Assembly (NCBI RefSeq): GCF_056712565.1
Contig: NZ_CM160072.1
DNA: 64,000 nucleotides
Direction: 5' to 3' (one strand)
Of the stretch, positions 633 through 35,206 are shown in pieces. Under the pieces are notes generated by a model that was given only the letters and a program-made list of their open reading frames with translations, made no database searches and had not been told where the DNA came from. The number at the start of each line of letters is the position of its first letter. Position 1 is the first letter of the stretch. Both the position numbers and the translations under genes were made by a program.

Positions 633-1157
633 ATAAAACCGCCAGAAATCAGGGCAAAGATAATCCGCATTCCGGGAGTTGTGAGCCTTTCAACTATTTC
701 TATTTCCAACGGTAGTTTTGGGCTTTATATATTTTTTTGATGGACTCTAGCTCAGTTTTTAAATAAAAATGCAAACTAAATTGCTTCAATTAAATAAAAT
801 CCCGACTATTACTTGATACGTGATTATTGTCGGTGATTTTTTTGTGCACCATCAGTGTATATCTCAATAACCCCTGAATAAGTAGCTCTGAATAGGTATA
901 AGGGGTGTAGCCTTTTTAAATGGATTTCTTATGCCAAAAATGATCGTCGATTTCCCCATAAAATGTGAGCGATGCCGAAAGAAATAAAATTAGTTATTGC
1001 ATTTGAAGTTTAGATGAAAGATTATTATTTGTCATACAAATGAGGGGTGGTATGTTGCTAGCCAATTAAAAAAGAACGCCATATTTATTGATGATTGATC
1101 CCCCGGAAGGGGGGAACCATCGGGCATAAATGGGCATGAAGTAATGGAGTATTAGTT

Positions 1158-1877
1158 GTGAATGTCAATTTCTTTGTCACCTGCATTGGTGACGCCCTGA
1201 AATCAAGAATGGCACGAGACTCCGTGCTGCTACTGGAAAAACTCGGCTGTCGCGTAAATTTCCCGGAGAAACAAGGATGCTGCGGTCAGCCTGCGATCAA
1301 TAGTGGTTATATCAAAGAAGCGATTCCAGGGATGAAAAATCTGATCGCCGCACTGGAGGATAACGACGATCCCATTATTTCACCGGCTGGCTCTTGCACC
1401 TATGCCGTAAAAAGTTACCCGACGTATCTGGCGGATGAACCTGAATGGGCATCACGTGCCGAAAAGGTTGCCGCGCGTATGCAGGATCTCACCTCTTTTA
1501 TTGTTAATACATTAGGGGTAGTCGATGTAGGTGCCAGTTTGCAAGGGAGAGCGGTGTATCACCCATCTTGTAGCCTGGCCCGTAAGCTGGGGGTGAAGGA
1601 CGAACCACTTACGCTGCTGAAAAATGTGCGTGGACTGGAGCTGTTGACCTTTGCTGAACAGGATACCTGCTGCGGATTTGGCGGCACGTTCTCGGTCAAA
1701 ATGGCCGAAATATCCGGCGAGATGGTGAAAGAAAAGGTTGCGCACCTGATGGAAGTCCGCCCTGAGTATTTAATTGGTGCTGACGTGAGTTGCCTGCTGA
1801 ACATCAGTGGACGATTACAACGGGAAGGGCAGAAAGTCAAAGTGATGCATATTGCTGAAGTGCTGATGAGCCGCTGA
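1158..1877 (+). CDS. ykgE: LutA-like cysteine-rich Fe-S oxidoreductase subunit (YkgE)
   Basis: 239-aa ORF with GTG start after a GGAG motif; cysteine-rich CCG-type motifs; first gene of the ykgEFG gene order. Confidence 0.9.
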   Translation: MNVNFFVTCIGDALKSRMARDSVLLLEKLGCRVNFPEKQGCCGQPAINSGYIKEAIPGMKNLIAALEDNDDPIISPAGSCTYAVKSYPTYLADEPEWASRAEKVAARMQDLTSFIVNTLGVVDVGASLQGRAVYHPSCSLARKLGVKDEPLTLLKNVRGLELLTFAEQDTCCGFGGTFSVKMAEISGEMVKEKVAHLMEVRPEYLIGADVSCLLNISGRLQREGQKVKVMHIAEVLMSR

Positions 1878-1887
1878 GGATATAAAG

Positions 1888-3315: not shown

Positions 3316-4003
3316 TCGGAGCAAATTTTTGAATAACGTTGCTCAGGCACTGGGGCGCCCGCTGCGACTTGAACCGCAAGCAGAAGATGCGCCGCTTAAC
3401 AACTATGCTAACGAGCGGCTTACCCAACTTACCCAACAGCAGCGCTGTGACGCGTTTATCCAGTTTGCCAGCGATGTTATGTTGACGCGCTGTGAACTGA
3501 CCAGCGAGGCGAAGGCGGCAGAAGCTGCAATACGTCTGTGTAAAGAGCTGGGAGATCAGTCGGTCGTGATTAGTGGTGACACGAGGCTGGAGGAATTGGG
3601 GATTAGCGAACGTTTGCAGCAGGAATGCAATGCCGTTGTTTGGGATCCGGCGAAAGGTATTGAGAACATATCACAAGCAGAGCAGGCTAAAGTGGGCGTC
3701 GTATATGCTGAATATGGTTTAACCGAATCGGGAGGCGTGGTTCTTTTTTCCGCCGCCGGGCGCGGGCGTTCATTGAGCCTGCTCCCGGAATCTTCTCTTT
3801 TTATCCTGCGTAAAAGCACAATCCTGCCGCGTGTAGCGCAACTCGCAGAAAAATTGCATCAGAAAGCGCAGGCCGGTGAACGAATGCCGTCATGTATTAA
3901 CATCATCAGTGGTCCCAGTTCAACGGCGGACATTGAGCTTATCAAAGTCGTCGGGGTTCATGGTCCGGTGAAAGCGGTGTATCTGATTATTGAGGATTGC
4001 TGA
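3308..4003 (+). CDS. ykgG: LutC-like protein (YkgG)
   Basis: In-frame ATG at 3308 overlapping the ykgF stop gives 231 aa (MDNRSKF...), the expected size; the longer ORF from 3155 is an upstream extension inside ykgF. Confidence 0.85.
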   Translation: MDNRSKFLNNVAQALGRPLRLEPQAEDAPLNNYANERLTQLTQQQRCDAFIQFASDVMLTRCELTSEAKAAEAAIRLCKELGDQSVVISGDTRLEELGISERLQQECNAVVWDPAKGIENISQAEQAKVGVVYAEYGLTESGGVVLFSAAGRGRSLSLLPESSLFILRKSTILPRVAQLAEKLHQKAQAGERMPSCINIISGPSSTADIELIKVVGVHGPVKAVYLIIEDC

Positions 4004-4245
4004 GAGAGATATGTAGTCTGGACATAAACCTGAAGGCGGTATACGAGGTTGTGAATAGCGTTAAGGACAACCTGACTTAACCCCGTTCCGTCATGGTTAT
4101 GCAGCTCTTCTGTAAATATCCTGACATTAATAATGCCAGGATATTTACAGTTAAAAAGACAGGAATCCATTCCTGAAGACGGGCTCCCTTCCCGGTCACT
4201 GTCACTATAGTTTTATACAGGCACTCTCTGTCAGAATGCTGTTTA

Positions 4246-4914
4246 TTACTGCCCAGAGTTTTGTTGGTATTCATCTACCATTTTTTTGACAAGGCAAAAC
4301 ATCACAGAAATCACAATACTTAGAAAAAATCCCAGAGCCAGGCAAATGGCAGCAGGGTATTTATTTTTTATTTCTGGTGAGCTTATAGTGACACAGCCAT
4401 CACCGTTCGGATACAGTGACCAGTTCCTGGTCAGGTATATCATTTTTGTATAAAGCTCACTGTTAATTGCTGAAGGCGTTTGTATCTCATCGAGAACTTG
4501 CCTGCCATTATGGTATTCTGACGCATACCATTTGATGATAGACGCCTGCACGCGAGATATTTCCGCTTCAGCAGTTGGTAAATCTCTCTTATTTCCTGAC
4601 CATTCCAGCTTTATTTCTCTGTTCTTGACATCTGGGCTGGTCTGAAAAAATGTAGTAATTCGCTGAATAACATCTTCAGTCATTGTGGTCTGACAGGCAA
4701 AGTTATTATTGCTATCACAGCTAACAAGTATGCCTGGTGTTGTCTGGTTTATTTTTAGACTGTAAGTCACTTTTATATTATCTTTATTGATATACAGAAA
4801 CAACAGCACCATTACCATACAGATAGCTATAATAAAAAGGATAACACGAATCTTTTTCTTCAGATAAAATAAAATCTCAATCAGATCGATATCCTGTTTG
4901 ATTTGTTCATTCAT
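4246..4914 (-). CDS. ykgH: Predicted inner-membrane protein YkgH
   Basis: 222-aa ORF with an N-terminal hydrophobic segment; position after ykgG matches K-12. Confidence 0.85.
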   Translation of the reverse strand: MNEQIKQDIDLIEILFYLKKKIRVILFIIAICMVMVLLFLYINKDNIKVTYSLKINQTTPGILVSCDSNNNFACQTTMTEDVIQRITTFFQTSPDVKNREIKLEWSGNKRDLPTAEAEISRVQASIIKWYASEYHNGRQVLDEIQTPSAINSELYTKMIYLTRNWSLYPNGDGCVTISSPEIKNKYPAAICLALGFFLSIVISVMFCLVKKMVDEYQQNSGQ

Positions 4915-5097
4915 AATATATCCAGAAAATGAAATCTGTCGCAGATAAGATTGTATTAATAGTCTGTATCAGGAATGTTCAGGGTAAATATCAGCAAAAA
5001 GCCAGCATCATGAATACTGGATATTTATAGCCTGCAGGCAGCATACTGCTGCCTGCAGGGGGTATAACAGTCGACAGGGGAACCGACTGCTTTATTC

Positions 5098-7395
5098 TTA
5101 CCAGGTCACATTGATACCAACTACACCCTGTAGCGGGTTCTCAATGTCGTCACCTTTGGTGTAGTCAAGGCTTGCATATGCTCCCATGTTTTTGGTGATA
5201 TCAGCCTGTACACCTGCACCCACGCGGAATGCTGCACCGTCAATGCTGGCATTGACAGACTCATCACCCAGACGGACTTTGTTGCCATCAGAGAATTCGT
5301 TCAGTGCGGCCAGATTCAGATAAGGTTTAACGGTCGCGTTGCCCACAGCGAAGTCATAACCCACGCGCGTACCGGCCTCACCCAGCACAGAGTTATAGCT
5401 GTCAGAATGAACGTCCACGCCGTTGAGTTGATAATCCACACCTTCCAGAGTCAGAGCAGACAGTTTGGCATATGGCTGAATAAACAGGCCATTACCGTCT
5501 TTCCATGTGTAACCGCCTTTAACCATCGCACCAAAACCATTGGTGTTAAAGTCAGCTTTGATGGTACCGCCACCATTCATCAGGCGAACATCTGCCGTGT
5601 TGCTGTAGTGACCAAACTGTGCAGCAGTATCAATGAAGATACCGTTGTTATACTGGCGGCTCAGGTAAGCGTGGAAGCTGTAACCTTCAGTGTCACCTTT
5701 GCTCTGCATGGTAGTCATGTCACCTTTCGCAGAAGACATCGCCACACCGGCCAGCCAGCTACCATCTTCAGTCATGAAGCGGGTATCACCACCCAGCATT
5801 ACACCATTTACATCCAGGTCATAGGATGCATTTCCCGCGGTGGTATGTTTCTGTTTACCGCCAAAGTACTGAATCCATACGCCACCCTTGTCATTTTCGC
5901 TCAGACGGACAGCATCCTGACGGGCGGAGAGCGTGTCAGCCTGCAGATTAGCGACGTTAGCCGGAGCAGCTGCCATTGCCTGAATCACGGAGCTGGCGTT
6001 GGATGCTTTATGCGTGTTTTTTACGAAATAAAAGTTACCATCAGCTCCCTGTGTCAGGTCATATTGATACAGACCACCTTCCGTTGTGCCTGTGGCTTTT
6101 AGAGTGCTGTCTTTGCCGGTAGAAATAAATGCCGTTTGTTCATTGATAAGATCCAATGAACCCGCACTGTAAACACGCAAGTCACCGCTCGCTTTACCGC
6201 TGATATCCAGAGTGTTTTCAGAAGAGGCATCAACAATCAGAGTGCCGTTTTGAGAAGCAAACGTGCCAGTATTGACTGTAGCCTTCGTGATATTAACCGT
6301 ACTGTCTTTTACTGCCAGAGCATCAACAGTTGAGGAACCCGTAACATTCCAGACAGACCCGTTTTGCAGAGATACACTGGCATCTCCTGCCCCTGAAACT
6401 TTGCCTTTCCAGACTGAACTATCGGAAAGATTTATATCCAGATCACTACCCGCTTTATCGCCGCTATTGAAGGTATAAGCATTACCTTCCCAGTAAGAGC
6501 GGGCAACGTTCATATTTACATTTGTTGTGGTACTGGCTGAATTCTCGCTTTCAGAAAGGGCCAGGACATCAGAGTAGATGGTTGAATCAGCAACAGACAA
6601 ATTTAAATTTTGCGTTGCTGAACCTGCGCCTTGTGCCGAAGCAGAGGCATAAATTGTTTGTTTATTATTAGCCGCCCCAATTACTGAGCCATCCTTAATA
6701 TTCAGGTTGACTGTATGAATTCCCGTCTTATTCCCGGCAGTAACTATTGTTTCAATCCCGCCATTAATAATATTTGAGTCAGCAAGGGTGATGTTGTCGG
6801 TTGCATCACCGTCAAAACCCTGCAACAAATTACCCTTTTGAGCAAAAATTGCCGTAGAGCCGTTGCTGTAACTCTTATTACCTTGAGCATTTATGGTTGT
6901 ACCATTGAGCGTTAAATTATTTCCCGTGGTCGCTTCCAGAGATATCCCTGTCGCACTACCTTTTTCATTTTTTGCAACGAAATTACCGCCATTAACAACA
7001 ACATCGCCAGTTGAATCAATGACCATTGCAGTCCGGACATAGGTGCCTTCACCTTGAGCTGTGATGGTGGAGTCTGTAGCATTAATCACAACATTTTTGT
7101 TACCACTAACTTTTACACCTTCAACGAAATCTTGGTTTACCGTTGATGCGGCGGTAATATCGTGACCGCCAAAAGTAACATTAAGGTCTTTATCTGAATC
7201 TGACGTTTCAATTGTTACGGCTGTAATCTTGTTATCACCGTTAATAACAACATCTTGATCCAGAGTCGTCTTCTCTGTATTCAGCGTAACCGGATCAGTT
7301 GATACCGTGCTATCAGTAGCGAATGCTGGTGCAGAAAGAGCCATAACAATAGCTGTCGCTAATGCGCTGCGGTAAAATGCCTTACTGTTTTTCAT
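5098..7395 (-). CDS. upaE: Type Va autotransporter: signal peptide, N/T/G/S-rich beta-helix-like passenger, C-terminal beta-barrel ending in W. Possibly UpaE
   Basis: Long ORF; start chosen at MKNSKAF (7395), which has a GGAG motif 9 nt upstream and a classical signal peptide; passenger is rich in short N/T/G repeats; C-terminal roughly 280 aa is barrel-like and ends GINVTW. Symbol by locus architecture from memory, not alignment. Confidence 0.7.
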   Translation of the reverse strand: MKNSKAFYRSALATAIVMALSAPAFATDSTVSTDPVTLNTEKTTLDQDVVINGDNKITAVTIETSDSDKDLNVTFGGHDITAASTVNQDFVEGVKVSGNKNVVINATDSTITAQGEGTYVRTAMVIDSTGDVVVNGGNFVAKNEKGSATGISLEATTGNNLTLNGTTINAQGNKSYSNGSTAIFAQKGNLLQGFDGDATDNITLADSNIINGGIETIVTAGNKTGIHTVNLNIKDGSVIGAANNKQTIYASASAQGAGSATQNLNLSVADSTIYSDVLALSESENSASTTTNVNMNVARSYWEGNAYTFNSGDKAGSDLDINLSDSSVWKGKVSGAGDASVSLQNGSVWNVTGSSTVDALAVKDSTVNITKATVNTGTFASQNGTLIVDASSENTLDISGKASGDLRVYSAGSLDLINEQTAFISTGKDSTLKATGTTEGGLYQYDLTQGADGNFYFVKNTHKASNASSVIQAMAAAPANVANLQADTLSARQDAVRLSENDKGGVWIQYFGGKQKHTTAGNASYDLDVNGVMLGGDTRFMTEDGSWLAGVAMSSAKGDMTTMQSKGDTEGYSFHAYLSRQYNNGIFIDTAAQFGHYSNTADVRLMNGGGTIKADFNTNGFGAMVKGGYTWKDGNGLFIQPYAKLSALTLEGVDYQLNGVDVHSDSYNSVLGEAGTRVGYDFAVGNATVKPYLNLAALNEFSDGNKVRLGDESVNASIDGAAFRVGAGVQADITKNMGAYASLDYTKGDDIENPLQGVVGINVTW

Positions 7396-7436
7396 GAAGA
7401 AATTCTCCATTCTGGTAACTAATTTCAATTTCCCAC

Positions 7437-8198
7437 TTATTTATATTTATGCAGAGATAAAGCCTGCGTCCCTGCATTTACCACCACGGAATACCTGTTG
7501 GTATTTCCGTTTTCACGCAATGTCATGGCATTCGTTGTTTCCAATGCATTTCCATCACCGTGAAAATTATTGCTGCTCAGCAGCAGGGCTTCCCGCAATG
7601 ACATGCTGTCCGGTATTCCCCAACGCTTTTTTAGCGACTGCTCGGCAAGCCATATCTGTCTTATCCCCGTTTTGAGAAACTGCGCACTGTATTCCCAGCT
7701 GTGTCCGGCAAGAAGTAACGACAACACCTTCTTTTGCTTTTCCGGGAAGCGTTCTGACATGACGATTGTCTTTGTGCGGTTATTCACCTCTTTCATAAAG
7801 ACAGAGTAACTGTCCATAACTGGCAAAATTTCTGCATGCTTCAGCCCTGAAAACCCACCAGAGGCATTTGCAATACTGATGACACGCTCTACTGACATTC
7901 CTGGTTTCAGTAACCTCAGGTTTTTGAGAACGCCAGAAATACTCACATCCGGTGGCAGAAAAAAGGGCGTGACGCACAACACCACCACGAATGAGTGATC
8001 CCGATAAAATCGGAACCACATTTCAGCGCATTCGGCAGGTCGCCCTGCCGATATCACGACACTCTGTGGCCTGTGCCGCAATTTATTGCGTAACTCCTCT
8101 TCTGTTCTGATGCAGGTAACATTGCCGACAGAACCGGTTGATAGAGCTGCGAACTGCGCTGGTACAATTCCTGAGGGACAGAAAAGAACGAAACGCAT
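7437..8198 (-). CDS. Hypothetical regulator with a degenerate LuxR/GerE-type HTH region
   Basis: 253-aa ORF directly upstream of the autotransporter (8-bp gap); segment LSLLLAGHSWEYSAQFLKTGIRQIWLAEQSLKKRWGI loosely resembles a LuxR HTH. Confidence 0.5.
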   Translation of the reverse strand: MRFVLFCPSGIVPAQFAALSTGSVGNVTCIRTEEELRNKLRHRPQSVVISAGRPAECAEMWFRFYRDHSFVVVLCVTPFFLPPDVSISGVLKNLRLLKPGMSVERVISIANASGGFSGLKHAEILPVMDSYSVFMKEVNNRTKTIVMSERFPEKQKKVLSLLLAGHSWEYSAQFLKTGIRQIWLAEQSLKKRWGIPDSMSLREALLLSSNNFHGDGNALETTNAMTLRENGNTNRYSVVVNAGTQALSLHKYK

Positions 8199-17096: not shown

Positions 17097-17923
17097 ACCT
17101 CTTGATACGTTATATCTGTGTACAGTTAAGCCCTTAGTATCGATTGATGATTGCCAGGCAACAGATAATAAAAAAGAAAAGAACTATTGAAGCCCAAAAC
17201 CTACGTTTGGACTGTTGTGAATGTTCAATAAGCTTAGTCTTATTTAATGTAAATATTGGTGCTAATTTGAAATGACGCTTTATTCATGGGGAACGCGTAG
17301 CGCAAATCAACTAAAATCAATGTAACTGTTTGTTGTTTAAGGTTTAATTGTCTGTGTCTGATATTTTATCGATTGTTTTAAATATTGTTTTTATTGTCAT
17401 TGTTATAATGTTGGCTATCTATTGCTGAATGGATTCAGTCTTAAGAAGCAGGTTGTTAAGGGATAGGCATAGAGTAATGACGTGTATGCATAACCAACAT
17501 CTTTACTCATTATGTCATTGAATGTTGACGCTATGTGTTTATGAGGTTGAGGTATTTTCAGTTGATCTGGATTGTTAAATTCATATAATGCGCCTTTACT
17601 CATGAATGGGCGTCAATACGTAGTGGGAAATTATAAATATCGAAATAGTCCAACTACTTCTTTATTACCAAAAATGAGTATCTGAATTTTAATATTGCAT
17701 TATTGCGTGATTATCTCCTGAGTTTGACTTGTGATTACCTTTTTAAGGTATTTAGCGTAACTGTTTTTGAGCGAGCATCAGAGGTAAAGATAATCTTCTT
17801 GATAGTGATGTGGGATGTTATACGTATGGCATCGCTAATGTTTATGGTTACCCCTTATGTGTGCTCAGGAATCCACAGGTAATCACTCATACTGAACAGC
17901 GATAAAAGATAAAAGGTGTGTTC

Positions 17924-19012
17924 ATGAATTCATGTGATTTTCGTGTTTTTCTGCAAGAGTTCGGTACAACGGTTCATTTGTCATTGCCTGGTAGCGTATC
18001 CGAGAAAGAACGACTGCTACTCAAGCTGCTGATGCAGGGAATGTCTGTAACAGAAATATCACAGTACAGAAATCGCAGTGCAAAGACCATTTCACATCAA
18101 AAGAAACAGCTCTTTGAGAAACTGGGGATTCAGAGCGATATTACTTTCTGGCGGGATATTTTCTTTCAGTACAATCCGGAGATCATATCCGCCACGGGTA
18201 ATAATAGTCACAAATATATTAATGATAATCACTATCACCATATCGTCACGCCTGAAGCCATCAGTCTGGCGTTGGAAAACCACGAGTTTAAACCGTGGAT
18301 CCAACCGGTTTTCTGCGCGCAGACTGGGGTACTGACGGGCTGTGAAGTGCTTGTCCGCTGGGAACATCCACAAACGGGAATGATCCCACCGGATCAGTTT
18401 ATTCCTCTGGCGGAGTCATCCGGTCTTATTGTCATAATGACTCGCCAGCTGATGAAACAGACTGCGGATATTCTGATGCCGGTAAAACATTTGCTGCCGG
18501 ACAATTTCCATATTGGTATCAACGTCTCGGCGGGCTGTTTTTTGGCTGCGGGATTTGAAAAAGAGTGTCTGAACCTGGTTAAGAAATTAGGTAACGATAA
18601 AATCAAGCTGGTTCTTGAGCTGACGGAACGTAATCCTATTCCGGTAACGCCAGAAGCCAGAGCGATATTTGACAGCCTTCATCAGCACAATATTACTTTT
18701 GCGCTGGATGACTTTGGTACGGGTTATGCGACCTATCGTTACTTGCAGGCGTTCCCGGTCGATTTTATTAAAATTGACAAGTCGTTTGTGCAAATGGCGA
18801 GTGTCGATGAAATCTCCGGTCATATTGTGGACAATATTGTCGAACTGGCGCGTAAGCCTGGTCTGAGTATCGTGGCGGAAGGGGTAGAAACCCAGGAGCA
18901 GGCGGATTTAATGATCGGTAAAGGCGTTCACTTTTTACAGGGCTATTTGTACTCTCCGCCAGTACCGGGTAATAAATTTATCTCTGAATGGGTAATGAAA
19001 GCAGGTGGTTGA
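17924..19012 (+). CDS. pdeL: c-di-GMP phosphodiesterase PdeL (YahA): LuxR-type HTH plus EAL domain
   Basis: N-terminal LuxR HTH and C-terminal EAL-domain region; long AT-rich upstream region as at K-12 pdeL. Start taken at MNSCDF. Confidence 0.9.
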   Translation: MNSCDFRVFLQEFGTTVHLSLPGSVSEKERLLLKLLMQGMSVTEISQYRNRSAKTISHQKKQLFEKLGIQSDITFWRDIFFQYNPEIISATGNNSHKYINDNHYHHIVTPEAISLALENHEFKPWIQPVFCAQTGVLTGCEVLVRWEHPQTGMIPPDQFIPLAESSGLIVIMTRQLMKQTADILMPVKHLLPDNFHIGINVSAGCFLAAGFEKECLNLVKKLGNDKIKLVLELTERNPIPVTPEARAIFDSLHQHNITFALDDFGTGYATYRYLQAFPVDFIKIDKSFVQMASVDEISGHIVDNIVELARKPGLSIVAEGVETQEQADLMIGKGVHFLQGYLYSPPVPGNKFISEWVMKAGG

Positions 19013-19053
19013 TGTAAACCGCTATTCACAGCGCATCGGGAGGTTGGCAGCGA

Positions 19054-19986
19054 TTAATTCTCCCGATGCAGTAAATCCTGATAGATCCCCGTTAATATGC
19101 CATTTGGCGCAAATTGTTTTTTAATCCACTGCGTCACCTGACCGGTGGCAGAGTGCTGGGTTGCGAGTAACATGCGTGAATCCTGGCGCGGGTTATGGAT
19201 TTGTCGGGTAACCAGCAAGGATTGCGCCATCGCCTCACGGACCATGTAATCCGGCAAAAAACCAATTCCTTCACCTAAAATCTGGCACTGACATTTGGTG
19301 TTGAAATCTGGCACCAGAATTGACTCCTGCCCATGCAGCAACCAGCCCACTTTTTTATTAATCGTATGCGCGGTGTCCTCCACCATGATATTAGGGTAGA
19401 GACGCAGCTGGCTTTCGGCGATCGGCTCCGGCACAAAGGCTAATGGGTGATCCGGGGCGATGGCAAAAGCCCAGCGAATCGCGCCAATCTCCGTGTAATC
19501 AATGCCGCCGCCGTCCAGCAGCGTGTCGGGCGCGCCGATGGCGATATTTGCCTGATTATTAATAATCGCATCCCAGACGCCGTTATACACTTCGGTCGTC
19601 ACGGTAATCTGGCAGGTAGGAAACTGCTTTTTCAGCACCTGTAATAAGCGCGCGGTGTGTTTGGGCGTATAAAGCAGCTGATTAATACAAATGCGCACAC
19701 GCGCTTCTATGCCCTGCGAAATAGTATCGATACTGCGTTTAATGGCGTGAAAATCATTCAGCAGGTCGGTAGCTTTGCGGAAAAAATAACGCCCGGACTC
19801 CGTTAACTCAATGCTGCGGGTACTGCGAGTGAACAGCACCACATCCAGCCCTGTTTCCATACGTTTAATGGTGTAGCTAATGGCGGAAGTGGTTAAACCC
19901 AACTCTTCTGCGGCTTTACTGAAGCTGCCAAAACGCGCAGCGGTAGTAAATGCCAACAGATTCTCTTCGGTAAAAATTGAGTTCAT
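19054..19986 (-). CDS. yahB: LysR-family transcriptional regulator YahB
   Basis: 310 aa with N-terminal LysR-type HTH. Confidence 0.85.
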   Translation of the reverse strand: MNSIFTEENLLAFTTAARFGSFSKAAEELGLTTSAISYTIKRMETGLDVVLFTRSTRSIELTESGRYFFRKATDLLNDFHAIKRSIDTISQGIEARVRICINQLLYTPKHTARLLQVLKKQFPTCQITVTTEVYNGVWDAIINNQANIAIGAPDTLLDGGGIDYTEIGAIRWAFAIAPDHPLAFVPEPIAESQLRLYPNIMVEDTAHTINKKVGWLLHGQESILVPDFNTKCQCQILGEGIGFLPDYMVREAMAQSLLVTRQIHNPRQDSRMLLATQHSATGQVTQWIKKQFAPNGILTGIYQDLLHREN

Positions 19987-25296: not shown

Positions 25297-25314
25297 TCTG
25301 TAAAGTGCGCGTTG

Positions 25315-25405
25315 TTTCTGCCGGATGCGGCGTGAACGCCTTATCCGGCCTACGAGTGGCGCAAGAATCTGTAGGCCTGATAAGCGTAGCGCATCAGGCA
25401 GTCTG
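25315..25405. repeat. REP (repetitive extragenic palindromic) elements
   Basis: gccggatgcggcgtgaacgccttatccggcctac and the inverted tgtaggcctgataagcg...catcaggc motifs between yahG and yahI. Confidence 0.8.
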
Positions 25406-25449
25406 GCGTTGGTCATAACCCCATCACCCTCTGTCGCGGACATAACAAC

Positions 25450-26409: not shown

Positions 26410-27792
26410 ATGAAAGAAAACAATAGCCGCCGTGAATTTCTGAGCCAGAGCGGTAAGATGGTCACCGCCGCCGCGCTGTTTGGTCCCTCAGTGCCGCTCG
26501 CCCATGCGGGGGTAGCTGGCACCCTAAACTGCGAAGCGAACAACACCATGAAAATCACTGACCCGTATTACTATCTCGATAACGTGCTGCTGGAAACCGG
26601 TTTTGACTACGAAAATGGCGTGGCGGTGCAGACCCGCACGGCGCGCCAGACTGTGGAAATTCAGAACGGTAAAATTGTTGCCCTGCGCGAGAACAAGCAG
26701 CATCCGGACGCCACGCTGCCGCACTATGACGCTGGCGGTAAGCTTATGTTGCCCACTACTCGCGACATGCATATTCATCTCGACAAAACCTTTTACGGCG
26801 GACCGTGGCGCTCACTCAATCGCCCTGCAGGCACCACCATCCAGGACATGATTAAGCTCGAGCAAAAAATGCTGCCGGAACTGCAACCCTACACTCAGGA
26901 GCGGGCAGAAAAACTGATCGATTTATTGCAGTCGAAAGGCACCACCATTGCCCGCAGCCACTGCAATATCGAACCGGTTTCCGGCCTGAAAAATCTGCAA
27001 AATTTGCAGGCGGTGCTGGCGCGACGTCAGGCGGGCTTCGAGTGTGAAATCGTCGCCTTCCCGCAGCACGGTTTGCTGCTGTCGAAATCGGAACCCTTAA
27101 TGCGCGAAGCGATGCAGGCGGGGGCGCATTACGTCGGCGGGCTGGACCCGACCAGTGTTGATGGCGCGATGGAAAAATCCCTCGACACCATGTTCCAGAT
27201 TGCACTGGACTACGACAAAGGCGTCGATATTCACCTGCACGAAACCACTCCGGCAGGCGTAGCGGCCATCAATTATATGGTTGAAACAGTGGAGAAAACG
27301 CCGCAACTGAAGGGCAAGCTGACCATCAGCCACGCCTTTGCGCTGGCAACGCTCAATGAGCAACAGGTAGATGAACTGGCGCACCGGATGGCGGCGCAGC
27401 AAATTTCTATCGCCTCGACGGTGCCGATTGGCACGTTGCATATGCCGCTCAAACAACTGCACGACAAAGGCGTAAAAGTGATGACCGGCACCGACAGCGT
27501 TATCGACCACTGGTCGCCTTACGGCCTGGGCGACATGCTGGAAAAAGCCAATCTCTACGCGCAGCTCTATATTCGTCCTAACGAACAGAATTTGTCCCGT
27601 TCGCTGTTTTTAGCCACTGGCGATGTATTGCCGCTCAACGAAAAAGGCGAGCGTGTGTGGCCTAAAGCGCAGGATGACGCCAGCTTTGTGCTGGTGGACG
27701 CCTCCTGTTCCGCCGAGGCGGTGGCGCGTATCTCGCCGAGAACGGCGACGTTCCATAAAGGGCAACTGGTGTGGGGGAGTGTGGCAGGTTGA
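26410..27792 (+). CDS. yahJ: Metal-dependent amidohydrolase/deaminase YahJ with Tat-type signal
   Basis: 460 aa; N-terminal SRREFL twin-arginine motif. Confidence 0.85.
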   Translation: MKENNSRREFLSQSGKMVTAAALFGPSVPLAHAGVAGTLNCEANNTMKITDPYYYLDNVLLETGFDYENGVAVQTRTARQTVEIQNGKIVALRENKQHPDATLPHYDAGGKLMLPTTRDMHIHLDKTFYGGPWRSLNRPAGTTIQDMIKLEQKMLPELQPYTQERAEKLIDLLQSKGTTIARSHCNIEPVSGLKNLQNLQAVLARRQAGFECEIVAFPQHGLLLSKSEPLMREAMQAGAHYVGGLDPTSVDGAMEKSLDTMFQIALDYDKGVDIHLHETTPAGVAAINYMVETVEKTPQLKGKLTISHAFALATLNEQQVDELAHRMAAQQISIASTVPIGTLHMPLKQLHDKGVKVMTGTDSVIDHWSPYGLGDMLEKANLYAQLYIRPNEQNLSRSLFLATGDVLPLNEKGERVWPKAQDDASFVLVDASCSAEAVARISPRTATFHKGQLVWGSVAG

Positions 27793-28089
27793 TACGAACT
27801 TGATATGTCTGCAACGGTGAACAGTAAGAGATTTAAGCCCCAGGGAGTGGGGCATCAATGGTTTGCTAATGAATGATCCTGAACTTTATAATCTCCGGGC
27901 ATAATTTCCAGGGGATTATTTGAGAGAAATACACAAAAGTGAGTTTTAACAAAGGTATTTATCAAGCCATAAATGTGACCTGCTTCGGATAAAAAGATTA
28001 AACATAGAAAAACCAATGATCCTCTTGCTGATGGTTATCAACAGTAATTAAGATGTGATTTGTTTTTCCGTAATCGCGAAAATATTCTC

Positions 28090-28500
28090 ATGACCATAAA
28101 AGAAAAAATCTCACAAAAATATCCCCATGCTTCCTTTTGTACTTTTGGCGATTCAGCAGCGTTGGCCGATCACCTCGCAACGTTGATTGCGACTGGTGTT
28201 AAAACAGCTTCCTGTGGTTCGCTGGCGGGATGTATTGAAGACAACGCATTTCCGATGATTGGGGAGTATAAGATTGTAGAAAATAGCCGTGGTGAGCCTG
28301 TCTGTGTTATCAGAGTAATTGGCCTGCATTTACTGCGCTTTTCTGATGTCACCGCGGAGCTTGCCCGTAAGGAAGGTGAAGGTGACCTCAGTCTTGAATA
28401 TTGGCGTAATGAACACCGTCGTTTTTTCCAGGCAGAAGGATGCTATTCACCCGAAATGGACGTTATCTTTGAAGAATATGCCCTTATTGACGTTGTGTAG
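28090..28500 (+). CDS. Hypothetical protein; weak, unverified resemblance to ASCH-type small proteins. Start uncertain (TTG at 28060 or ATG at 28090)
   Basis: 136-146 aa ORF in an AT-rich stretch upstream of the ABC transporter; not in the K-12 gene order as I recall it. Confidence 0.45.
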   Translation: MTIKEKISQKYPHASFCTFGDSAALADHLATLIATGVKTASCGSLAGCIEDNAFPMIGEYKIVENSRGEPVCVIRVIGLHLLRFSDVTAELARKEGEGDLSLEYWRNEHRRFFQAEGCYSPEMDVIFEEYALIDVV

Positions 28501-28750
28501 ATAACTATTTTTCTACGCGAAATAAGCTCACAAACATAAAGTATCGCTAATTTTGTTTATTTTGCTATTTTTTACGTGATGATTGTCACACTTATTGTTA
28601 CTGCCCGTTTTGTCCATATTTATAACCAAATTTTTAATAGCTGCCTGAAATAGGGCTGTTTATTCTGCATAAAAATATTCGAAAATTCTTATTCTCTCCA
28701 GCGCGCTAATTTGGGCGAACACTTCCTGACTACCCTGCAATGAGGCTGAA

Positions 28751-29737
28751 ATGATGAATAAACGTTTTGTTATCAATATGGTGTCTTCGCTGTTATTAGG
28801 CGCTGCGCTAATTTCTGCGCCGCTCCAGGCCGCGGAAAAAGTCGTGGTGAATATCTCTAAAGTCGATGGTATGCCGTGGTTTAATCGCATGGGCGAAGGT
28901 GTGGTTGAGGCGGGTAAAGCCTTTGGTGTTAATGCGTCACAGGTGGGGCCTTCAAGTACTGATGCTCCACAACAAGTTAAAATTATTGAGGATTTAATCG
29001 CCCGTAAGGTTAATGCAATTACAATTGTGCCAAACGATGCCAACGTGCTGGAACCGGTATTCAAAAAAGCGCGAGATGCCGGAATTGTGGTTCTGACCAA
29101 CGAATCCCCCGGTCAGCCAAGTGCTAACTGGGATATCGAAATCATTGATAACGAAAAATTTGCCGCTGAATATGTTGAGCATATGGCGAAACGCATGGGT
29201 GGCAAGGGCGGCTATGTGATTTACGTGGGTAGTTTGACCGTGCCGCAGCATAACTTATGGGCTGACTTGCTGGTGAAATACCAGAAAGAGCATTACCCGG
29301 ATATGCATGAAGTTACCCGCCGCATGCCGGTTGCCGAGAGTGTGGATGACTCACGTCGTACTACACTGGACCTGATGAAAACCTATCCTGACTTGAAAGC
29401 GGTTGTCTCCTTTGGTTCAAACGGTCCGATTGGCGCGGGACGTGCAGTGAAAGAGAAACGGGCGAAAAATAAAGTCGCAGTCTATGGCATGATGATCCCT
29501 TCACAGGCGGCATCACTGATTAAAAGTGGTGATATCACCGAAGGGATTACTTACGATCCGGCCTCTGCAGGTTACGCACTCGCGGCCGTCGCCAGCACGT
29601 TGCTGAAGGGTGAAGAGATCAAACCTGGATTAGAAATGCAGAATCTGGGTAAGGCCGACGTAGATATGGATAAGCGAATTATCCGTTTCCATAAGGTATT
29701 ACTGGTCAACAAAGACAATATCGACTCACTTTATTAA
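28751..29737 (+). CDS. Periplasmic sugar-binding protein of a CUT2-family ABC transporter, LsrB-like
   Basis: 328 aa with signal peptide; C-terminus KVLLVNKDNIDSLY resembles the LsrB C-terminus as I recall it; GAGG motif upstream. Confidence 0.8.
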   Translation: MMNKRFVINMVSSLLLGAALISAPLQAAEKVVVNISKVDGMPWFNRMGEGVVEAGKAFGVNASQVGPSSTDAPQQVKIIEDLIARKVNAITIVPNDANVLEPVFKKARDAGIVVLTNESPGQPSANWDIEIIDNEKFAAEYVEHMAKRMGGKGGYVIYVGSLTVPQHNLWADLLVKYQKEHYPDMHEVTRRMPVAESVDDSRRTTLDLMKTYPDLKAVVSFGSNGPIGAGRAVKEKRAKNKVAVYGMMIPSQAASLIKSGDITEGITYDPASAGYALAAVASTLLKGEEIKPGLEMQNLGKADVDMDKRIIRFHKVLLVNKDNIDSLY

Positions 29738-29785
29738 TCCATTTCTTCGGGGCGAAAGCCCCGATTCTTATTGCCAGGGGATGTT

Positions 29786-31270
29786 ATGGAAACCTTCCTT
29801 TCCCTTCGTCATATCAACAAAACGTTTCATGCCACGCGAGCGCTGCGCGATGTTTCTCTCGACTTTATGTCGGGTGAAGTGCACTGTCTTGCCGGGCAAA
29901 ACGGCTGTGGTAAATCGACGTTGATTAAAATTATGTCCGGTGTTTATCGCCCGGATGAGGGAGCGGAAATTACGCTTGGTGGGAAAAACTGGTCAAAGCT
30001 GACACCCGCCGCTTCGGTGGCGCAGGGGATTCAGGTGATTTATCAGGACCTCTCTTTATTTCCTAACCTGAGTGTCTGGGAGAATATCGCCGTGAATCAC
30101 TATCACCACGGTCTGTTTGTTAACCGACGTCGTCTGCGTGAGGTGGCGCAGGCGGCAATGACCAGTATTAACGTCACATTGCCACTGGATACGCTCGTTT
30201 CTGAGCTTTCAATTGCCCGCTGTCAGCTGGTGGCAATTTGCCGTGCACTGGCGCAGGACGCACGGTTGATCGTGATGGATGAACCAACCGCTTCGCTGAC
30301 CCATCAGGAAGTGCAAGGGTTATTACAGGTGGTGCATCAATTGCGGGAACGCGGGATCTGCGTGGTCTTCGTCAGTCATCGTCTGGAAGAAGTGATGGAA
30401 GTTTCCGACCGTATTTCAGTGCTGAAAGATGGTGAGCTGGTCGGGACCTTTCCGGCCGCAGAGATGACCACAAAACAACTCGGTTTTCTGATGACCGGCC
30501 AGGAGTTTGAATATCAGGTGCGAGAGTTGTGGCAGGGAAAATCCAGCACCCCGGTGCTGGAGGTGCGTAATTTAAGTCGTCATGGGGAATATCTAAATAT
30601 TAACTTGCGGGTGGAAGCGGGCGAAGTGGTATCGATTGTTGGCCTGCTTGGTGCGGGGCGCACGGAATTATGTCTGAGTCTGTTTGGTATGACCCGACCG
30701 GATGCTGGCGAGATCCTCATCAACGGCCAGCTGGTTACACTGCATAGTAACCAGGACGCCATCCGCCACGGTATTGGTTATGTTTCGGAAGATCGCATGT
30801 CGCGCGGTTTGGTGATGGCGCAATCTATTGAAGACAACATCATTAGCACTGTTTTTCACAAGGTAAAAGATCGCTTCGGCTTTCTGAGTGAAGCTAAAGT
30901 GTGTGACCTGGTGGACAGGCTAATCAAGGCATTGACCATCAAAGTCTCTGATCCTCATCTCCCGGTGAATACGCTTTCTGGTGGTAACGCGCAGCGAGTA
31001 TCGATCGCCAAATGGCTGGCGATTGGGCCACGACTGTTGATTCTCGATAGCCCGACAGTCGGTGTTGATATCGCCAACAAAGCAGGAATATACGGCATTA
31101 TCAGCGATCTGGCGGCTCATGGCATTGCGGTATTGATGATCTGCGATGAAATTGAAGAAGCGTGGTATCAAAGCCACCGGATTTTGGTAATGCAAAAAGG
31201 TCAGATCACCCATAGCTTCCTGCCTGACAGCAGTTCTCAGGCCAGGATTGCGGAGGTGGTAAATGGCTGA
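29786..31270 (+). CDS. ABC transporter ATP-binding protein with duplicated ATPase domains (RbsA/LsrA-like)
   Basis: Two nucleotide-binding domains (GQNGCGKST; GLLGAGRTE); start at METFLSL with AGGGGA upstream. Confidence 0.85.
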   Translation: METFLSLRHINKTFHATRALRDVSLDFMSGEVHCLAGQNGCGKSTLIKIMSGVYRPDEGAEITLGGKNWSKLTPAASVAQGIQVIYQDLSLFPNLSVWENIAVNHYHHGLFVNRRRLREVAQAAMTSINVTLPLDTLVSELSIARCQLVAICRALAQDARLIVMDEPTASLTHQEVQGLLQVVHQLRERGICVVFVSHRLEEVMEVSDRISVLKDGELVGTFPAAEMTTKQLGFLMTGQEFEYQVRELWQGKSSTPVLEVRNLSRHGEYLNINLRVEAGEVVSIVGLLGAGRTELCLSLFGMTRPDAGEILINGQLVTLHSNQDAIRHGIGYVSEDRMSRGLVMAQSIEDNIISTVFHKVKDRFGFLSEAKVCDLVDRLIKALTIKVSDPHLPVNTLSGGNAQRVSIAKWLAIGPRLLILDSPTVGVDIANKAGIYGIISDLAAHGIAVLMICDEIEEAWYQSHRILVMQKGQITHSFLPDSSSQARIAEVVNG

Positions 31271-32234
31271 ACTGAAAAAACGCCATGAATTCTGGCTGGC
31301 ATTACTGATTGTGGTGCTGTTTGTTGGCCTTGCCTGGCGCAGCGACGAGTTTCTGACATTCGGTAATTTGTACGATCTCGCCAATAACTATGCCATGTTG
31401 ACTATTCTCGCCTGTGGTTTGTTTGTGGTGTTAATTTCCGGTGGGATTGATATTTCGTTTCCGGCAATGACCATCATTGCGCAATACGGCATGGTGCTGC
31501 TGCTGCAAAAAATTGGTGGCAACTTTGCTGTCGCGTTTGCCCTGGCGGGCGGCATCGGCATTTTACTTGGCTTAATTAACGCCTTACTGGTTAATCGCCT
31601 ACGGGTGCCTTCTATCATCATCACTATCTCGACGCTGAATATTTTTTATGGCCTGCTGTTATGGTTGAGTAAAGGTGTGTGGCTGTACGACTTTCCGCCG
31701 TGGTTTGAGCAGGGGGTAATGTTGTTCAAGTACACCGATGCTGATGGCTATGACTATGGCCTTGGTCTGCCGCTGATCGCCATGATTACGGTGGTGCTGC
31801 TGACAGCGTTTATCATGAATTTCACCAGTGTAGGGCGCAAAATTTATGCCCTTGGCGGGAACCGCGAATCAGCCAGTCGCATCGGCTTTAGTGTGCTGAA
31901 ACTGCAACTTTTCGTCTATGGCTATATGGGATTGATGTCTGGTGCTGCGGGTGTAGTGCAGTCGTGGACGGTGATGACTGTCGCCCCCGATTCTCTTCTG
32001 GGTTATGAGCTGACAGTACTGGCTGCGGTGGTGCTTGGCGGCACTAGTTTGCTCGGCGGGCGCGGCACGTTAACCGGTACTTTGCTCGGCGTGGTGTTGT
32101 TGGCAGTGATGCAAAACGGGCTAAATTTATTGGGAGTCTCGTCTTACTGGCAAACATTGATCACCGGCATCATCATCGTTGCCAGCATTAGCGCCACGGC
32201 GTGGAGTCAGCATCAGAACCGGAGTCTGCTATGA
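31263..32234 (+). CDS. ABC transporter permease (RbsC/LsrC-like)
   Basis: 323-aa polytopic membrane protein; start overlaps the ATPase stop. Confidence 0.85.
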   Translation: MAELKKRHEFWLALLIVVLFVGLAWRSDEFLTFGNLYDLANNYAMLTILACGLFVVLISGGIDISFPAMTIIAQYGMVLLLQKIGGNFAVAFALAGGIGILLGLINALLVNRLRVPSIIITISTLNIFYGLLLWLSKGVWLYDFPPWFEQGVMLFKYTDADGYDYGLGLPLIAMITVVLLTAFIMNFTSVGRKIYALGGNRESASRIGFSVLKLQLFVYGYMGLMSGAAGVVQSWTVMTVAPDSLLGYELTVLAAVVLGGTSLLGGRGTLTGTLLGVVLLAVMQNGLNLLGVSSYWQTLITGIIIVASISATAWSQHQNRSLL

Positions 32235-33187
32235 AAAAATCGTGGCGTAATAACGTTGAGTTTTACTTGATCGGCCTGCTGGTGCTAACTGTTGCCGCCT
32301 TCAGCATTACTATGCCGGAGATTTTCTGGTCGATAAGTAATTTCCAGTCCGTCGCTTCGCAAATGCCCGTGCTGGGCATTCTGGCGTTGGCTATGGCGGT
32401 GACCATGCTTTGCGGTGGCATTAACTTGTCAATTATAGCCACTGCTAACGCCTGTTCACTGGTGATGGCGTGGGTGGCGACTCAGTATCCACCAGGTATT
32501 GCTACGGTTGTCGCTACGCTGCTGGCGGGCGCTGGCGCGGCGGTGATAATCGGTTTATGTAACGGCGTATTGATTGCTGGTATTCGAGTGTCGCCAATTC
32601 TTGCAACACTTGGGATGATGACGTTGCTCAAAGGGGTTAATATTCTGGTGACAGGCGGTAGCGCCATTGCCAATTATCCCTCATGGGTGCTGTGGTTGAA
32701 TCATGCACAGTGGTTCGGTATTCCGCTACCGATGTGGTTGTTTACCGCAGTGGCGCTGGGGCTGTGGATATTGCTGGAGAAAACGCCGCTCGGTAAATCC
32801 ATTTATCTGATTGGTTCTAACGAACGAGCAACACTTTACTCCGGTATTAACACTCGTCGGGTGCTGATATGGGTGTATGTCATTTCCGCCTTGCTTTGTG
32901 CGGTAGCGGCATTTTTGATGATGTCGAAACTCAACTCGGCTAAGGCCTCTTATGGCGAATCTTACTTGCTGGTGTCAATCCTCGCGGCAGTACTCGGCGG
33001 GGTTAATCCGGACGGCGGCAGCGGGCGGATAATTGGTATGGTGCTGGCGCTGTTTCTTCTGCAAATTATTGAAAGCGGCTTCAATATTCTCGGTATAAGC
33101 CCCTACCTGACGATGGCCTTATGGGGAACGTTGCTGCTCTGTTTCATTCAGGCTCGCGGCATGTTAGGGCTGGATCGGGTGGTTTAA
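32231..33187 (+). CDS. ABC transporter permease (RbsC/LsrD-like)
   Basis: About 318-aa membrane protein; ATGA overlap with the upstream permease. Confidence 0.85.
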   Translation: MKKSWRNNVEFYLIGLLVLTVAAFSITMPEIFWSISNFQSVASQMPVLGILALAMAVTMLCGGINLSIIATANACSLVMAWVATQYPPGIATVVATLLAGAGAAVIIGLCNGVLIAGIRVSPILATLGMMTLLKGVNILVTGGSAIANYPSWVLWLNHAQWFGIPLPMWLFTAVALGLWILLEKTPLGKSIYLIGSNERATLYSGINTRRVLIWVYVISALLCAVAAFLMMSKLNSAKASYGESYLLVSILAAVLGGVNPDGGSGRIIGMVLALFLLQIIESGFNILGISPYLTMALWGTLLLCFIQARGMLGLDRVV

Positions 33188-33273: not shown

Positions 33274-34323
33274 ATGAAGATCAAAGCTGTTGGTGCATAT
33301 TCCGCTAAACAACCGCTTGAACCGATGGATATCACCCGGCGTGAACCGGGACCGCATGATGTCAAAATTGAAATCGCTTACTGTGGCGTCTGCCATTCCG
33401 ATATCCACCAGGTCCGTTCCGAGTGGGCGGGGACGGTTTATCCCTGCGTGCCGGGCCATGAAATTGTAGGGCGCGTGGTAGCCGTTGGTGATCAGGTAGA
33501 AAAATATGCGCCGGGCGATCTGGTTGGTGTCGGCTGCATTGTCGACAGTTGTAAACATTGCGAAGAGTGTGAAGATGGGCTGGAAAACTACTGTGATCAC
33601 ATGACCGGAACCTATAACTCGCCGACACCGGATGAACCGGGCCATACTCTGGGCGGCTACTCACAACAGATCGTCGTTCATGAGCGATATGTTCTGCGTA
33701 TTCGTCACCCGCAAGAGCAGCTGGCGGCGGTGGCTCCTTTATTGTGTGCAGGAATCACCACGTACTCGCCGCTACGCCACTGGCTGGCCGGGCCGGGTAA
33801 AAAAGTGGGCGTGGTCGGCATCGGCGGTCTGGGACATATGGGGATTAAACTGGCCCACGCGATGGGGGCGCATGTGGTGGCATTTACCACTTCTGAGTCA
33901 AAACGCGAAGCGGCAAAAGCCCTGGGGGCCGATGAAGTTGTTAACTCACGCAATGCCGATGAGATGGTGGCTCATGTGAAGAGTTTCGATTTCATTTTGA
34001 ATACAGTAGCTGCGCCACATAATCTCGACGATTTTACCACCTTGCTGAAGCGCGATGGCACCATAACGCTGGTTGGTGCGCCTGCGACACCGCATAAATC
34101 GCCGGAAGTTTTCAACCTGATCATGAAACGCCGCGCGATAGCTGGTTCTATGATTGGCGGCATTCCAGAAACTCAGGAGATGCTCGATTTTTGCGCCGAA
34201 CATGGCATCGTGGCTGATATAGAGATGATTCGGGCCGATCAAATTAATGAAGCCTATGAGCGAATGCTGCGTGGTGATGTGAAATATCGTTTTGTTATCG
34301 ATAATCGCACACTAACAGACTGA
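33274..34323 (+). CDS. yahK: NADPH-dependent aldehyde reductase YahK (zinc-dependent alcohol dehydrogenase family)
   Basis: 349 aa; GHE..G zinc motif and GxGxxG cofactor motif. Confidence 0.9.
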   Translation: MKIKAVGAYSAKQPLEPMDITRREPGPHDVKIEIAYCGVCHSDIHQVRSEWAGTVYPCVPGHEIVGRVVAVGDQVEKYAPGDLVGVGCIVDSCKHCEECEDGLENYCDHMTGTYNSPTPDEPGHTLGGYSQQIVVHERYVLRIRHPQEQLAAVAPLLCAGITTYSPLRHWLAGPGKKVGVVGIGGLGHMGIKLAHAMGAHVVAFTTSESKREAAKALGADEVVNSRNADEMVAHVKSFDFILNTVAAPHNLDDFTTLLKRDGTITLVGAPATPHKSPEVFNLIMKRRAIAGSMIGGIPETQEMLDFCAEHGIVADIEMIRADQINEAYERMLRGDVKYRFVIDNRTLTD

Positions 34324-34758
34324 AAAAATTAATAAACATCCTGTGGTTTAACATATTAACTTCGCTCCACTTAACTTTTTAGTTAAGGAGAGCGAAATAA
34401 TATCAAAGTAGTGGTAAACCTATAGCGTAAATTCAGATTGTTAAATTAACTCCACTACTTTACACGTTAGTTATGAGCGATTTCTGATAGTGTCTGGTTT
34501 AATCAGAGCTTTATTATCTGCGACGTTTATTTTTATTTAAGAGAGCCACCTGCAAGTTGTTATTCCACCAGAGAGTGAATCGCAAAGCAGGTCATCATTT
34601 CATCTGTATATCTGTATGCCAAATGGCATTCCCCCTCCTTTTTCGCCGATATTTTGTTGTGAACGGCGGAGTTTCGCTTAAAAAAGCACCAGTAGTGGTT
34701 TCGCAGCTATATGGTGTATAAAAAATGTTCTCATACAGATGTTTTGTGAATGTGTGGG

Positions 34759-34787
34759 TTGACATTCATATGAAAAAAATCATAATT
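34759..34787 (+). promoter_or_regulatory. Near-consensus sigma70 promoter candidate (TTGACA, 16-17 bp spacer, CATAAT/ATAATT) with no annotated gene downstream
   Basis: ttgacattcatatgaaaaaaatcataatt read directly; lies in the 880-bp yahK-yahN gap. Confidence 0.4.
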
Positions 34788-35206
34788 CCATCATGTTTGT
34801 GTGGGGTCTTTTCTGTATCTTACGCATCGCACTCAAGCCTGACAGAAAATATGCTGTAAGGCTCATATCAAAAACCGCCATTAGCTCATCAGGAAGAGCA
34901 GACGACAACCAGGATTGTTGTATGGTACGGGGTTCGAGGCCTCGATGGCGGTCCAACTTTTCAAAACTCTTCTGAATCAGATCCCCTTATTTTCATCCCT
35001 GCAAAGTGGAACATTGCCATTGTTTGGCTATTCAGGACGGGTCAGAGCAATGAAAAAAGCCCACACAGGGGAGAGTGGGCTGAAATGGGAAGCTAAAGAC
35101 TCAAGTAAACTTATCGGAAATAAGGACCACGCATTACGGGGGCTATCATCGCCGATGGTCGGGATTCGGCAAATCAGGTTGATTACGTAGAGAGTAAATT
35201 ATCTGC

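Follow-up and report, generated by a model that had tools for sequence, protein, structure and literature searches.

Identification of the transporter locus between yahJ and yahK of Escherichia coli as the probable aauABCD importer, its predicted AraC/CRP operator and its loss from K-12

We analysed the ABC transporter genes located between yahJ and yahK in a stretch of 64,000 nucleotides (the window; RefSeq assembly GCF_056712565.1, contig NZ_CM160072.1). The window matches E. coli ATCC 11775 with 100% identity, and the RefSeq annotation of that genome was used. We are highly confident that these genes are aauABCD, encoding the Accessory L-arabinose uptake (Aau) importer, with the mechanism and the trans-acting partners of that system, and that the locus is an old one which was later lost in K-12. 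The aau locus is already known and characterized, and the questions of its substrate, kinase and regulator were answered experimentally in 2024–2025. It was described as O-island 17 (Z0415–Z0419) of enterohaemorrhagic E. coli (EHEC) (Cottam et al., 2024; PMC11127945). Searching the literature for the EDL933 locus tags yielded only the two papers of the Connolly laboratory, and a search on the Klebsiella structure 3D02 found nothing.

The assignment is carried by identity at several levels. AauA of the window is identical at 327 of 328 residues (E = 3.8e-214) to PDB entry 9I1M, which is AauA (Cottam et al., Nat Commun 2025; PMC12307932). The crystal structure of AauA holds alpha-D-ribulose, contacted by K37, W43, E118, H167, E196 and S223 (PMC12307932), and all six residues are present in AauA of the window. 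Genomes of O157:H7 cover the whole 5.7-kb interval including both flanks in one piece with 98.2% DNA identity, and the neighbours (yahJ, the ASCH-domain gene and yahK) are the same as in EHEC. The host here differs, being the non-EHEC type strain ATCC 11775, and its ATPase gene is intact, unlike that of the EDL933 derivative TUV93-0, which is interrupted by a premature stop (PMC11127945). In the window, yahJ (26410–27792) and yahK (33274–34323) flank five co-oriented genes:

28090–28500, plus strand: ASCH-domain gene, 136 amino acids (Pfam PF04266, E = 8.4e-22)
28751–29737, plus strand: aauA, periplasmic D-ribulose (weakly L-arabinose) binding protein (RefSeq WP_001042107.1; Pfam Peripla_BP_4 PF13407, E = 5.6e-63)
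29786–31270, plus strand: aauB, intact, ATPase of 494 amino acids with two fused ABC domains (NCBIfam matches below the equivalog cut-offs)
31263–32234, plus strand: aauC, permease (RefSeq annotation; NCBIfam AraH, RbsC and AlsC matches below the cut-offs)
32231–33187, plus strand: aauD, permease (NCBIfam RbsC and LsrD matches below the cut-offs)

With a binding protein, a fused ATPase and two permeases between yahJ and yahK, and neither a kinase nor a regulator alongside, this arrangement fits the layout of Aau. The ATPase polypeptide with two ABC domains, the Peripla_BP_4 binding protein and the RbsC/AraH-type permeases place the transporter in the CUT2 family (TC 3.A.1.2). AauB matches the AraG, XylG, YtfR and RbsA models over its full length (E = 1e-125 to 1e-111; residues 6–492 with AraG, XylG and RbsA) but falls short of every equivalog cut-off. 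The signal peptide of AauA ends after LQA, followed by AE. The genes aauB and aauC overlap by 8 nt and aauC and aauD by 4 nt. A preliminary description of this stretch, made from the sequence, had reported a small gene and a complete CUT2 transporter between yahJ and yahK, preceded by AT-rich DNA. All of these open reading frames (ORFs) are present on the plus strand, and the leader upstream of aauA is a spacer of 253 bp with 34% G+C. The same description had the small gene begin at 28060, which is an upstream TTG; the gene itself stands, with its start at 28090. Neither the ORF list nor the RefSeq annotation contains a kinase or regulator gene adjoining the transporter between yahJ and yahK, as the description had also stated.

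AauA binds D-ribulose with a dissociation constant (Kd) of 1.98 µM and L-arabinose with 598 µM, i.e. approximately 300-fold more weakly, and the thermal shifts were 16 °C with D-ribulose and 2 °C with L-arabinose (PMC12307932). The substrate, which the preliminary description had left open, had thus already been answered in print; the thermal-shift assay that it had proposed is the one run by the authors. Transcription of aau is not induced by D-ribulose, the use of D-ribulose by EHEC needs the presence of L-arabinose, and AraB, which phosphorylates the imported D-ribulose, is required (PMC12307932). In EHEC, the aau promoter (Paau) responds solely to L-arabinose, and its activity was abolished in a ΔaraC mutant and restored by complementation (PMC11127945). 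RNA-seq showed that AraFGH and YtfQRT-YjfF are co-induced with aau by L-arabinose, and a Δaau mutant of EHEC was 10- to 100-fold less fit in the mouse gut (PMC11127945).

For the locus in the window, the following sequence of events would be expected. AraC bound to L-arabinose would activate the aau promoter, probably with cAMP-CRP as a partner. In the periplasm, AauA would then capture alpha-D-ribulofuranose at micromolar affinity and, about 300-fold less tightly, L-arabinose; AauBCD would import the sugar, driven by ATP. Finally, the co-induced L-ribulokinase AraB would convert D-ribulose to D-ribulose-5-phosphate, which feeds the pentose phosphate pathway. Most probably, no kinase or regulator is encoded locally because AraC, as the regulator, and AraB, as the kinase, act in trans. 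Both araC and araBAD are annotated as intact in the ATCC 11775 genome. Its AraC is encoded by 281 codons and is identical to K-12 AraC at 280 of 281 aligned residues.

In the spacer upstream of aauA, we found a predicted regulatory module with the following elements:

28575–28590, no strand assigned: predicted CRP site CGTGATGATTGTCACA, matching TGTGA-N6-TCACA at 9 of 10 positions
28602–28639, plus strand: predicted AraC operator TGCCCGTTTTGTCCATA-ttta-TAACCAAATTTTTAATA, two direct 17-bp half-sites, 21 bp apart, resembling araI1/araI2
28661–28666, plus strand: candidate −10 hexamer TATTCT, 21 nt after the second half-site, inferred only by reading the sequence

The predicted half-sites occupy positions 28602–28618 and 28623–28639, and the first begins 27 bp downstream of the start of the CRP site. 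Matches of the CRP type and of this grade occur only three times in 64 kb. For AraC, tandem sites were scored as TAGC-N7-TCCATA taken twice, with a maximum of 20. By this measure the aau site scored 15, compared with 17 for araI and 15 for araO1 of K-12 PBAD, and a score of 15 was reached at only two positions in 128 kb (both strands of the window). The combined CRP and AraC module (28575–28639) is unique in the window. Its counterpart at K-12 PBAD consists of araI1/araI2 followed by TACTGT 20 nt further on. A generic scan for sigma-70 promoters and terminators found no more sites than in shuffled sequence and did not call the TATTCT hexamer, which would be expected of an activator-dependent promoter with a weak −35 region. 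A concrete AraC/CRP operator can be proposed for aau, which goes beyond the two Aau papers (PMC11127945; PMC12307932), neither of which maps an operator.

To place the locus among its relatives, one genome per species was considered, and the four-gene cassette was compared in the best 80 loci. These comprise an Aau clade (n = 60), defined by a binding protein at least 68% identical to AauA, and a clade at approximately 60% identity (n = 20) resembling the Rbl system of Citrobacter rodentium. The order of the transporter genes is kept in nearly all 80 loci. In 46 of the 60 Aau-clade loci, the best CRP match precedes the best AraC tandem site by exactly 27 or 28 bp, and the loci bearing this module include those of Klebsiella, Franconibacter, Mangrovibacter, Yersinia, Sodalis, Leclercia and Pasteurellaceae. 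At this spacing, the module was found in none of the 20 Rbl-type loci. Furthermore, an AraC equivalog (491 and 372 bits, cut-off 208) adjoins the cassette in 26 species loci, and araB and araA equivalogs also stand beside it in Providencia, Budvicia, Limnobaculum and others. Control by AraC and CRP is thus, as far as predicted sites and gene neighbourhoods indicate, a conserved feature of the Aau clade in Enterobacterales and Pasteurellaceae.

The Rbl system (RblABCD-RblK-RblI) has a homologous transporter with about 60% identity to Aau, in agreement with the published figure. D-ribulose induces it, growth on this sugar depends on it, and it is unresponsive to L-arabinose or L-ribulose. In contrast to Aau, loci of the Rbl type encode an FGGY pentulose kinase of their own (TIGR01315, 695 bits) together with a KpsF-like isomerase. 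Every binding protein compared (58 of the Aau clade and 19 of the Rbl clade, 77 in total) has the same residues, KWEHES, at the six D-ribulose contacts, whereas LsrB has KFDQNA at these positions. Because the D-ribulose pocket is identical, the two systems would be divergent rewirings and not convergent inventions. We infer that recognition of D-ribulose was inherited from a common ancestor and that Aau and Rbl differ in their wiring, i.e. AraC and AraB in trans versus a dedicated kinase. We lean, with some reserve, towards the wider view that Aau is an ancient member of the AraC/CRP regulon and not a recent hijack by a pathogen, that Aau and Rbl are rewirings of one ancestral ribulose transporter and that about half of E. 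coli, K-12 included, has lost the locus. Such an ancestral ribulose transporter would refine the published framing as 'convergent evolution' and leaves the published mechanism unaffected. The conserved CRP and AraC module, the adjacency of araC in 26 species loci and the identical contacts in 77 orthologues are observations beyond the two Aau papers.

Several of the compared loci showed particular features. In 13 of the Pasteurellaceae loci (L044–L063), an FGGY-type kinase of about 532 amino acids is encoded just downstream of the cassette, with araC upstream. Only XylB matched this kinase, and weakly (99.6 bits, cut-off 380); it might serve specifically as a ribulose kinase controlled by AraC. 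A 4.7-kb contig titled 'MAG: Bacteroidales bacterium' (SFEK01000152.1; L006) carries aauABCD with 99% protein identity to E. coli and is almost certainly a mis-binned E. coli contig. Cassette genes broken into short ORFs were seen in three loci, namely the ATPase gene in L013 and the binding protein and last permease genes in L043 (both Candidatus Symbiopectobacterium) and the ATPase gene and a permease gene in L078 (Actinobacillus seminis). This suggests pseudogenization, consistent with genome decay in insect symbionts.

In every aau-positive genome listed, AauA bears the RefSeq (PGAP) name 'autoinducer 2 ABC transporter substrate-binding protein', and the preliminary description had likewise pointed to LsrB and offered an autoinducer-2 (AI-2)-like compound as one option for the substrate. 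The resemblance to LsrB is real. PDB chains of LsrB match AauA at E values of about 1e-24 (5GTA, E = 8e-24), and it is not confined to the C-terminus as had been supposed; the proteins share 27–29% identity, with 29% in pairwise alignment over nearly the whole length. It is remote, however, and the identity lies below the 36% at which proteins of the non-receptor group of Pereira et al. resemble LsrB (PMC3386761). Functional LsrB contacts AI-2 through K35, D116, D166, Q167, P220 and A222 (Pereira et al., 2009, as summarized in PMC3386761), positions which we confirmed in the K-12 LsrB sequence. Both pairwise and multiple alignment, the check that had been proposed, showed that AauA keeps one of the six (K35), the other five being E, Q, H, F and S. 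AauA reached 111.4 bits with the NCBIfam LsrB equivalog NF011937 (cut-off 384), less than with RhaS (136.7 bits, cut-off 342), its best-scoring model. As had been reported, no lsrK, lsrR, lsrF or lsrG adjoins the transporter between yahJ and yahK in the ORF list or the RefSeq annotation; authentic lsr genes lie elsewhere in K-12. In addition, the crystal holds D-ribulose (PMC12307932), and induction is by L-arabinose via AraC (PMC11127945). The literature on AauA reports no AI-2 binding test, so a weak side activity may remain, and by our chemical reasoning AI-2 (R-THMF) and ribulofuranose are both substituted tetrahydrofurans. The earlier suspicion of a furanosyl ligand in place of a plain aldopentose was chemically close, alpha-D-ribulose being the ligand, but is not supported in respect of AI-2. 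On this evidence, it is scarcely credible that the transporter is an LsrB-type AI-2 importer. The RefSeq name is likely a propagated misannotation, given the LsrB score below the cut-off, the single AI-2 contact and the co-crystal with D-ribulose; D-ribulose/L-arabinose binding protein AauA would be a better product name. Binding proteins for ribose, xylose, rhamnose and allose were considered and rejected as well (bits/cut-off: RbsB 45.8/337, XylF 37.1/390, RhaS 136.7/342, AlsB 49.3/335), the scores for RbsB and XylF being far lower than that for LsrB.

A different question is whether D-ribulose is only a fortuitous high-affinity ligand and the true cargo L-arabinose or an arabinose-related sugar such as L-ribulose. 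Induction exclusively by L-arabinose via AraC and the partial rescue of ΔaraE on L-arabinose by constitutive aau expression (PMC11127945) would fit this idea, as would the conserved AraC/CRP operator and the linkage of the cassette to araC, araB and araA in many genera; binding of L-ribulose to AauA is absent from the published reports. On the other hand, the approximately 300-fold higher affinity and the larger thermal shift favour D-ribulose (PMC12307932), and Δaau mutants grow on L-arabinose in vitro without a defect (PMC11127945). Moreover, the identical six contacts occur in the Rbl clade, which serves growth on D-ribulose and shows no response to either L-arabinose or L-ribulose. We consider an arabinose-type cargo unlikely, albeit clearly less so than AI-2, and retain D-ribulose as the substrate of Aau.

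LsrACDB shares the CUT2 architecture and the binding-protein superfamily with Aau and, by the same chemical reasoning, a furanose-like ligand; it differs in the points given above. AraFGH and YtfQRT-YjfF are AraC-regulated CUT2 importers of E. coli, and AauB is most similar to AraG and YtfR. However, AauA is neither AraF-like nor YtfQ-like, its best families being RhaS and LsrB (both below the cut-off), and the high affinity of Aau is for D-ribulose and not for L-arabinose or galactofuranose. The RhaSTPQ system of Rhizobium (TIGR02637) supplies the top NCBIfam model for AauA, but the score falls well short of the cut-off, no binding of rhamnose to AauA has been reported and both the number of permease genes and the regulator are different.

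The history of the locus was examined by BLAST and global alignment of the window with the K-12 derivative MFDpir. In this genome, the gap between yahJ and yahK is only 376 bp long and the transporter genes are not there, in agreement with the preliminary description, which had regarded them as inserted. This latter view does not hold, as the K-12 gap bears remnants of both end genes and thus has the form of a deletion scar:

27855–28452, no strand assigned: K-12 deletion 1, approximately 0.6 kb, comprising the initial 363 nt of the ASCH gene and most of the spacer between it and yahJ (BLAST stops at 27854 and resumes at 28453)
28453–28522, plus strand: 3′ end and stop codon of the ASCH gene, retained in the K-12 scar, 66 of 70 positions identical (94%) to 3179–3248 of the K-12 locus L002
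28595–33112, no strand assigned: K-12 deletion 2, approximately 4.5 kb, comprising the AraC operator, the promoter, aauA, aauB, aauC and most of aauD (global alignment)

Read from yahJ to yahK, the K-12 gap begins with the shared yahJ-proximal sequence up to window position 27854, which is followed by 23 unrelated bases and the 70 bp matching the 3′ end of the ASCH gene. A decayed counterpart of the region upstream of aau comes next, and the gap ends with the last 72 nt of aauD and the aauD-yahK spacer. In the global alignment, homology runs through the right half-site of the predicted CRP site (..TCACACTTA) and then jumps to approximately 33113. The last 72 nt of aauD (33116–33187) are kept within a match of 189 bp beginning at 33116 (186 of 189 identical, 98%), and RefSeq lists the aauD remnant of K-12 as a 75-bp pseudogene 'missing N-terminus'. 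These remnants and the decayed upstream region indicate that K-12 descends from an aau-positive ancestor and lost approximately 0.6 kb and 4.5 kb. Among 5426 complete E. coli genomes, 2210 have the intact interval and 2803 the K-12-type scar (at least 80% of its length, 95.8–100% identity). E. coli is thus essentially dimorphic for one old deletion. In our reading, aau is old at the yahJ-yahK position, and K-12 and about half of E. coli have lost it via one shared two-part deletion.

The Aau papers describe the locus as a horizontally acquired O-island (PMC11127945; PMC12307932), whereas the scars argue for loss in K-12. A recent insertion of an island into a K-12-like yahJ-yahK site would account for the absence of aau from K-12 and about half of E. 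coli, for the AT-rich flanking spacers and ASCH gene and for the occurrence of the cassette in other genomic contexts in other genera. The supposedly empty site, however, holds the truncated 3′ ends of the ASCH gene and aauD and the decayed aau upstream region. No integrase, transposase, tRNA or flanking repeat genes were found among the ORFs around aau, and the aau genes have 48–51% G+C, close to the 50.7% of the window; only the ASCH gene and the spacers are AT-rich. A horizontally inserted island was rejected on these grounds. In addition, a lineage diverged by about 10% also carries aau beside yahK. This locus (L033, positions 1–8000; titled E. coli SCPM-O-B-8794 and a species representative) has 84–90% DNA identity to the window, with aau directly upstream of yahK, and probably represents a cryptic Escherichia lineage labelled E. 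coli. It joins sequence matching 17110–19112 of the window directly to 28401, thus lacking yahE-yahJ and keeping the last 100 bp of the ASCH gene. We regard recent acquisition as quite improbable. Loss of an ancestral trait in K-12 describes the aau locus better than the gain of a pathogenicity island, and this view changes the reading of the link between aau and EHEC virulence.

Some points weigh against our interpretation of the locus as an old, AraC-controlled Aau importer. The mechanism is established for the EHEC orthologue, and its extension to the window draws on 98–100% identity. The physiological substrate could be another sugar, e.g. L-ribulose or AI-2, neither of which is reported for AauA. 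The AraC and CRP sites are predictions, and the TAGC box of the first half-site is a poor one (TGCC); PMC11127945 and PMC12307932 contain no AraC or CRP footprint or chromatin immunoprecipitation (no 'binding site' text). No other named Escherichia species is represented among the best 80 loci; for this reason, an older horizontal acquisition by an ancestor of E. coli is possible. Finally, AraC of ATCC 11775 is without the last 11 residues of K-12 AraC. In this genome, two hypothetical genes and an IS630 transposase remnant lie between araC and yabI (NZ_CP033092.2, 3935842–3938479; 15843–18480 of L086), and for this reason an insertion has probably clipped the 3′ end of araC.

The ASCH-domain gene has 45% G+C (39% at third codon positions). 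Its product matched no NCBIfam family, and the nearest PDB entries (1T62 and 3S9X) bear no functional name. No ASCH match with at least 60% query coverage was found in the 80 orthologous loci of other genomes; the gene accompanies aau only in Escherichia. As no other genus has it beside the cassette, it was rejected as a transporter component and is regarded as a separate unit and a neighbour. The strongest sigma-70-like match of the region (TTGCTA-18-TATAAT, 10 of 12 positions, 27863–27892) is located approximately 200 bp upstream of the ASCH gene, within the segment deleted in K-12, and may be the ASCH promoter.

Within the operon, a further feature was found between aauA and aauB:

29747–29764, plus strand: GC-rich hairpin, a weak terminator-like match

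The surrounding stretch of 56 nt (29735–29790) had a folding energy of −18.6 kcal/mol with a z-score of only −1.6, i.e. no significant gain in stability over shuffled sequences. The hairpin is possibly an mRNA stabilizer or a partial terminator.

The neighbourhood of aau shows other differences from K-12. The gene yahL, located between yahK and yahM in K-12, is not annotated in the window (34324–34944), where the gap is approximately 620 bp compared with approximately 1470 bp in K-12. This yahK-yahM spacer is AT-rich (36–38% G+C) and represents a second presence/absence difference beside aau. The yahG-yahI spacer of the window (25297–25449) is 153 bp long and has no yahH, whereas that of K-12 is 421 bp long with yahH annotated. 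About ten matches to the chromosomal interval are on records classed as plasmids, e.g. a 40.5-kb 'plasmid' starting with 57 bp of the yahJ end, and are probably assembly or classification artefacts.

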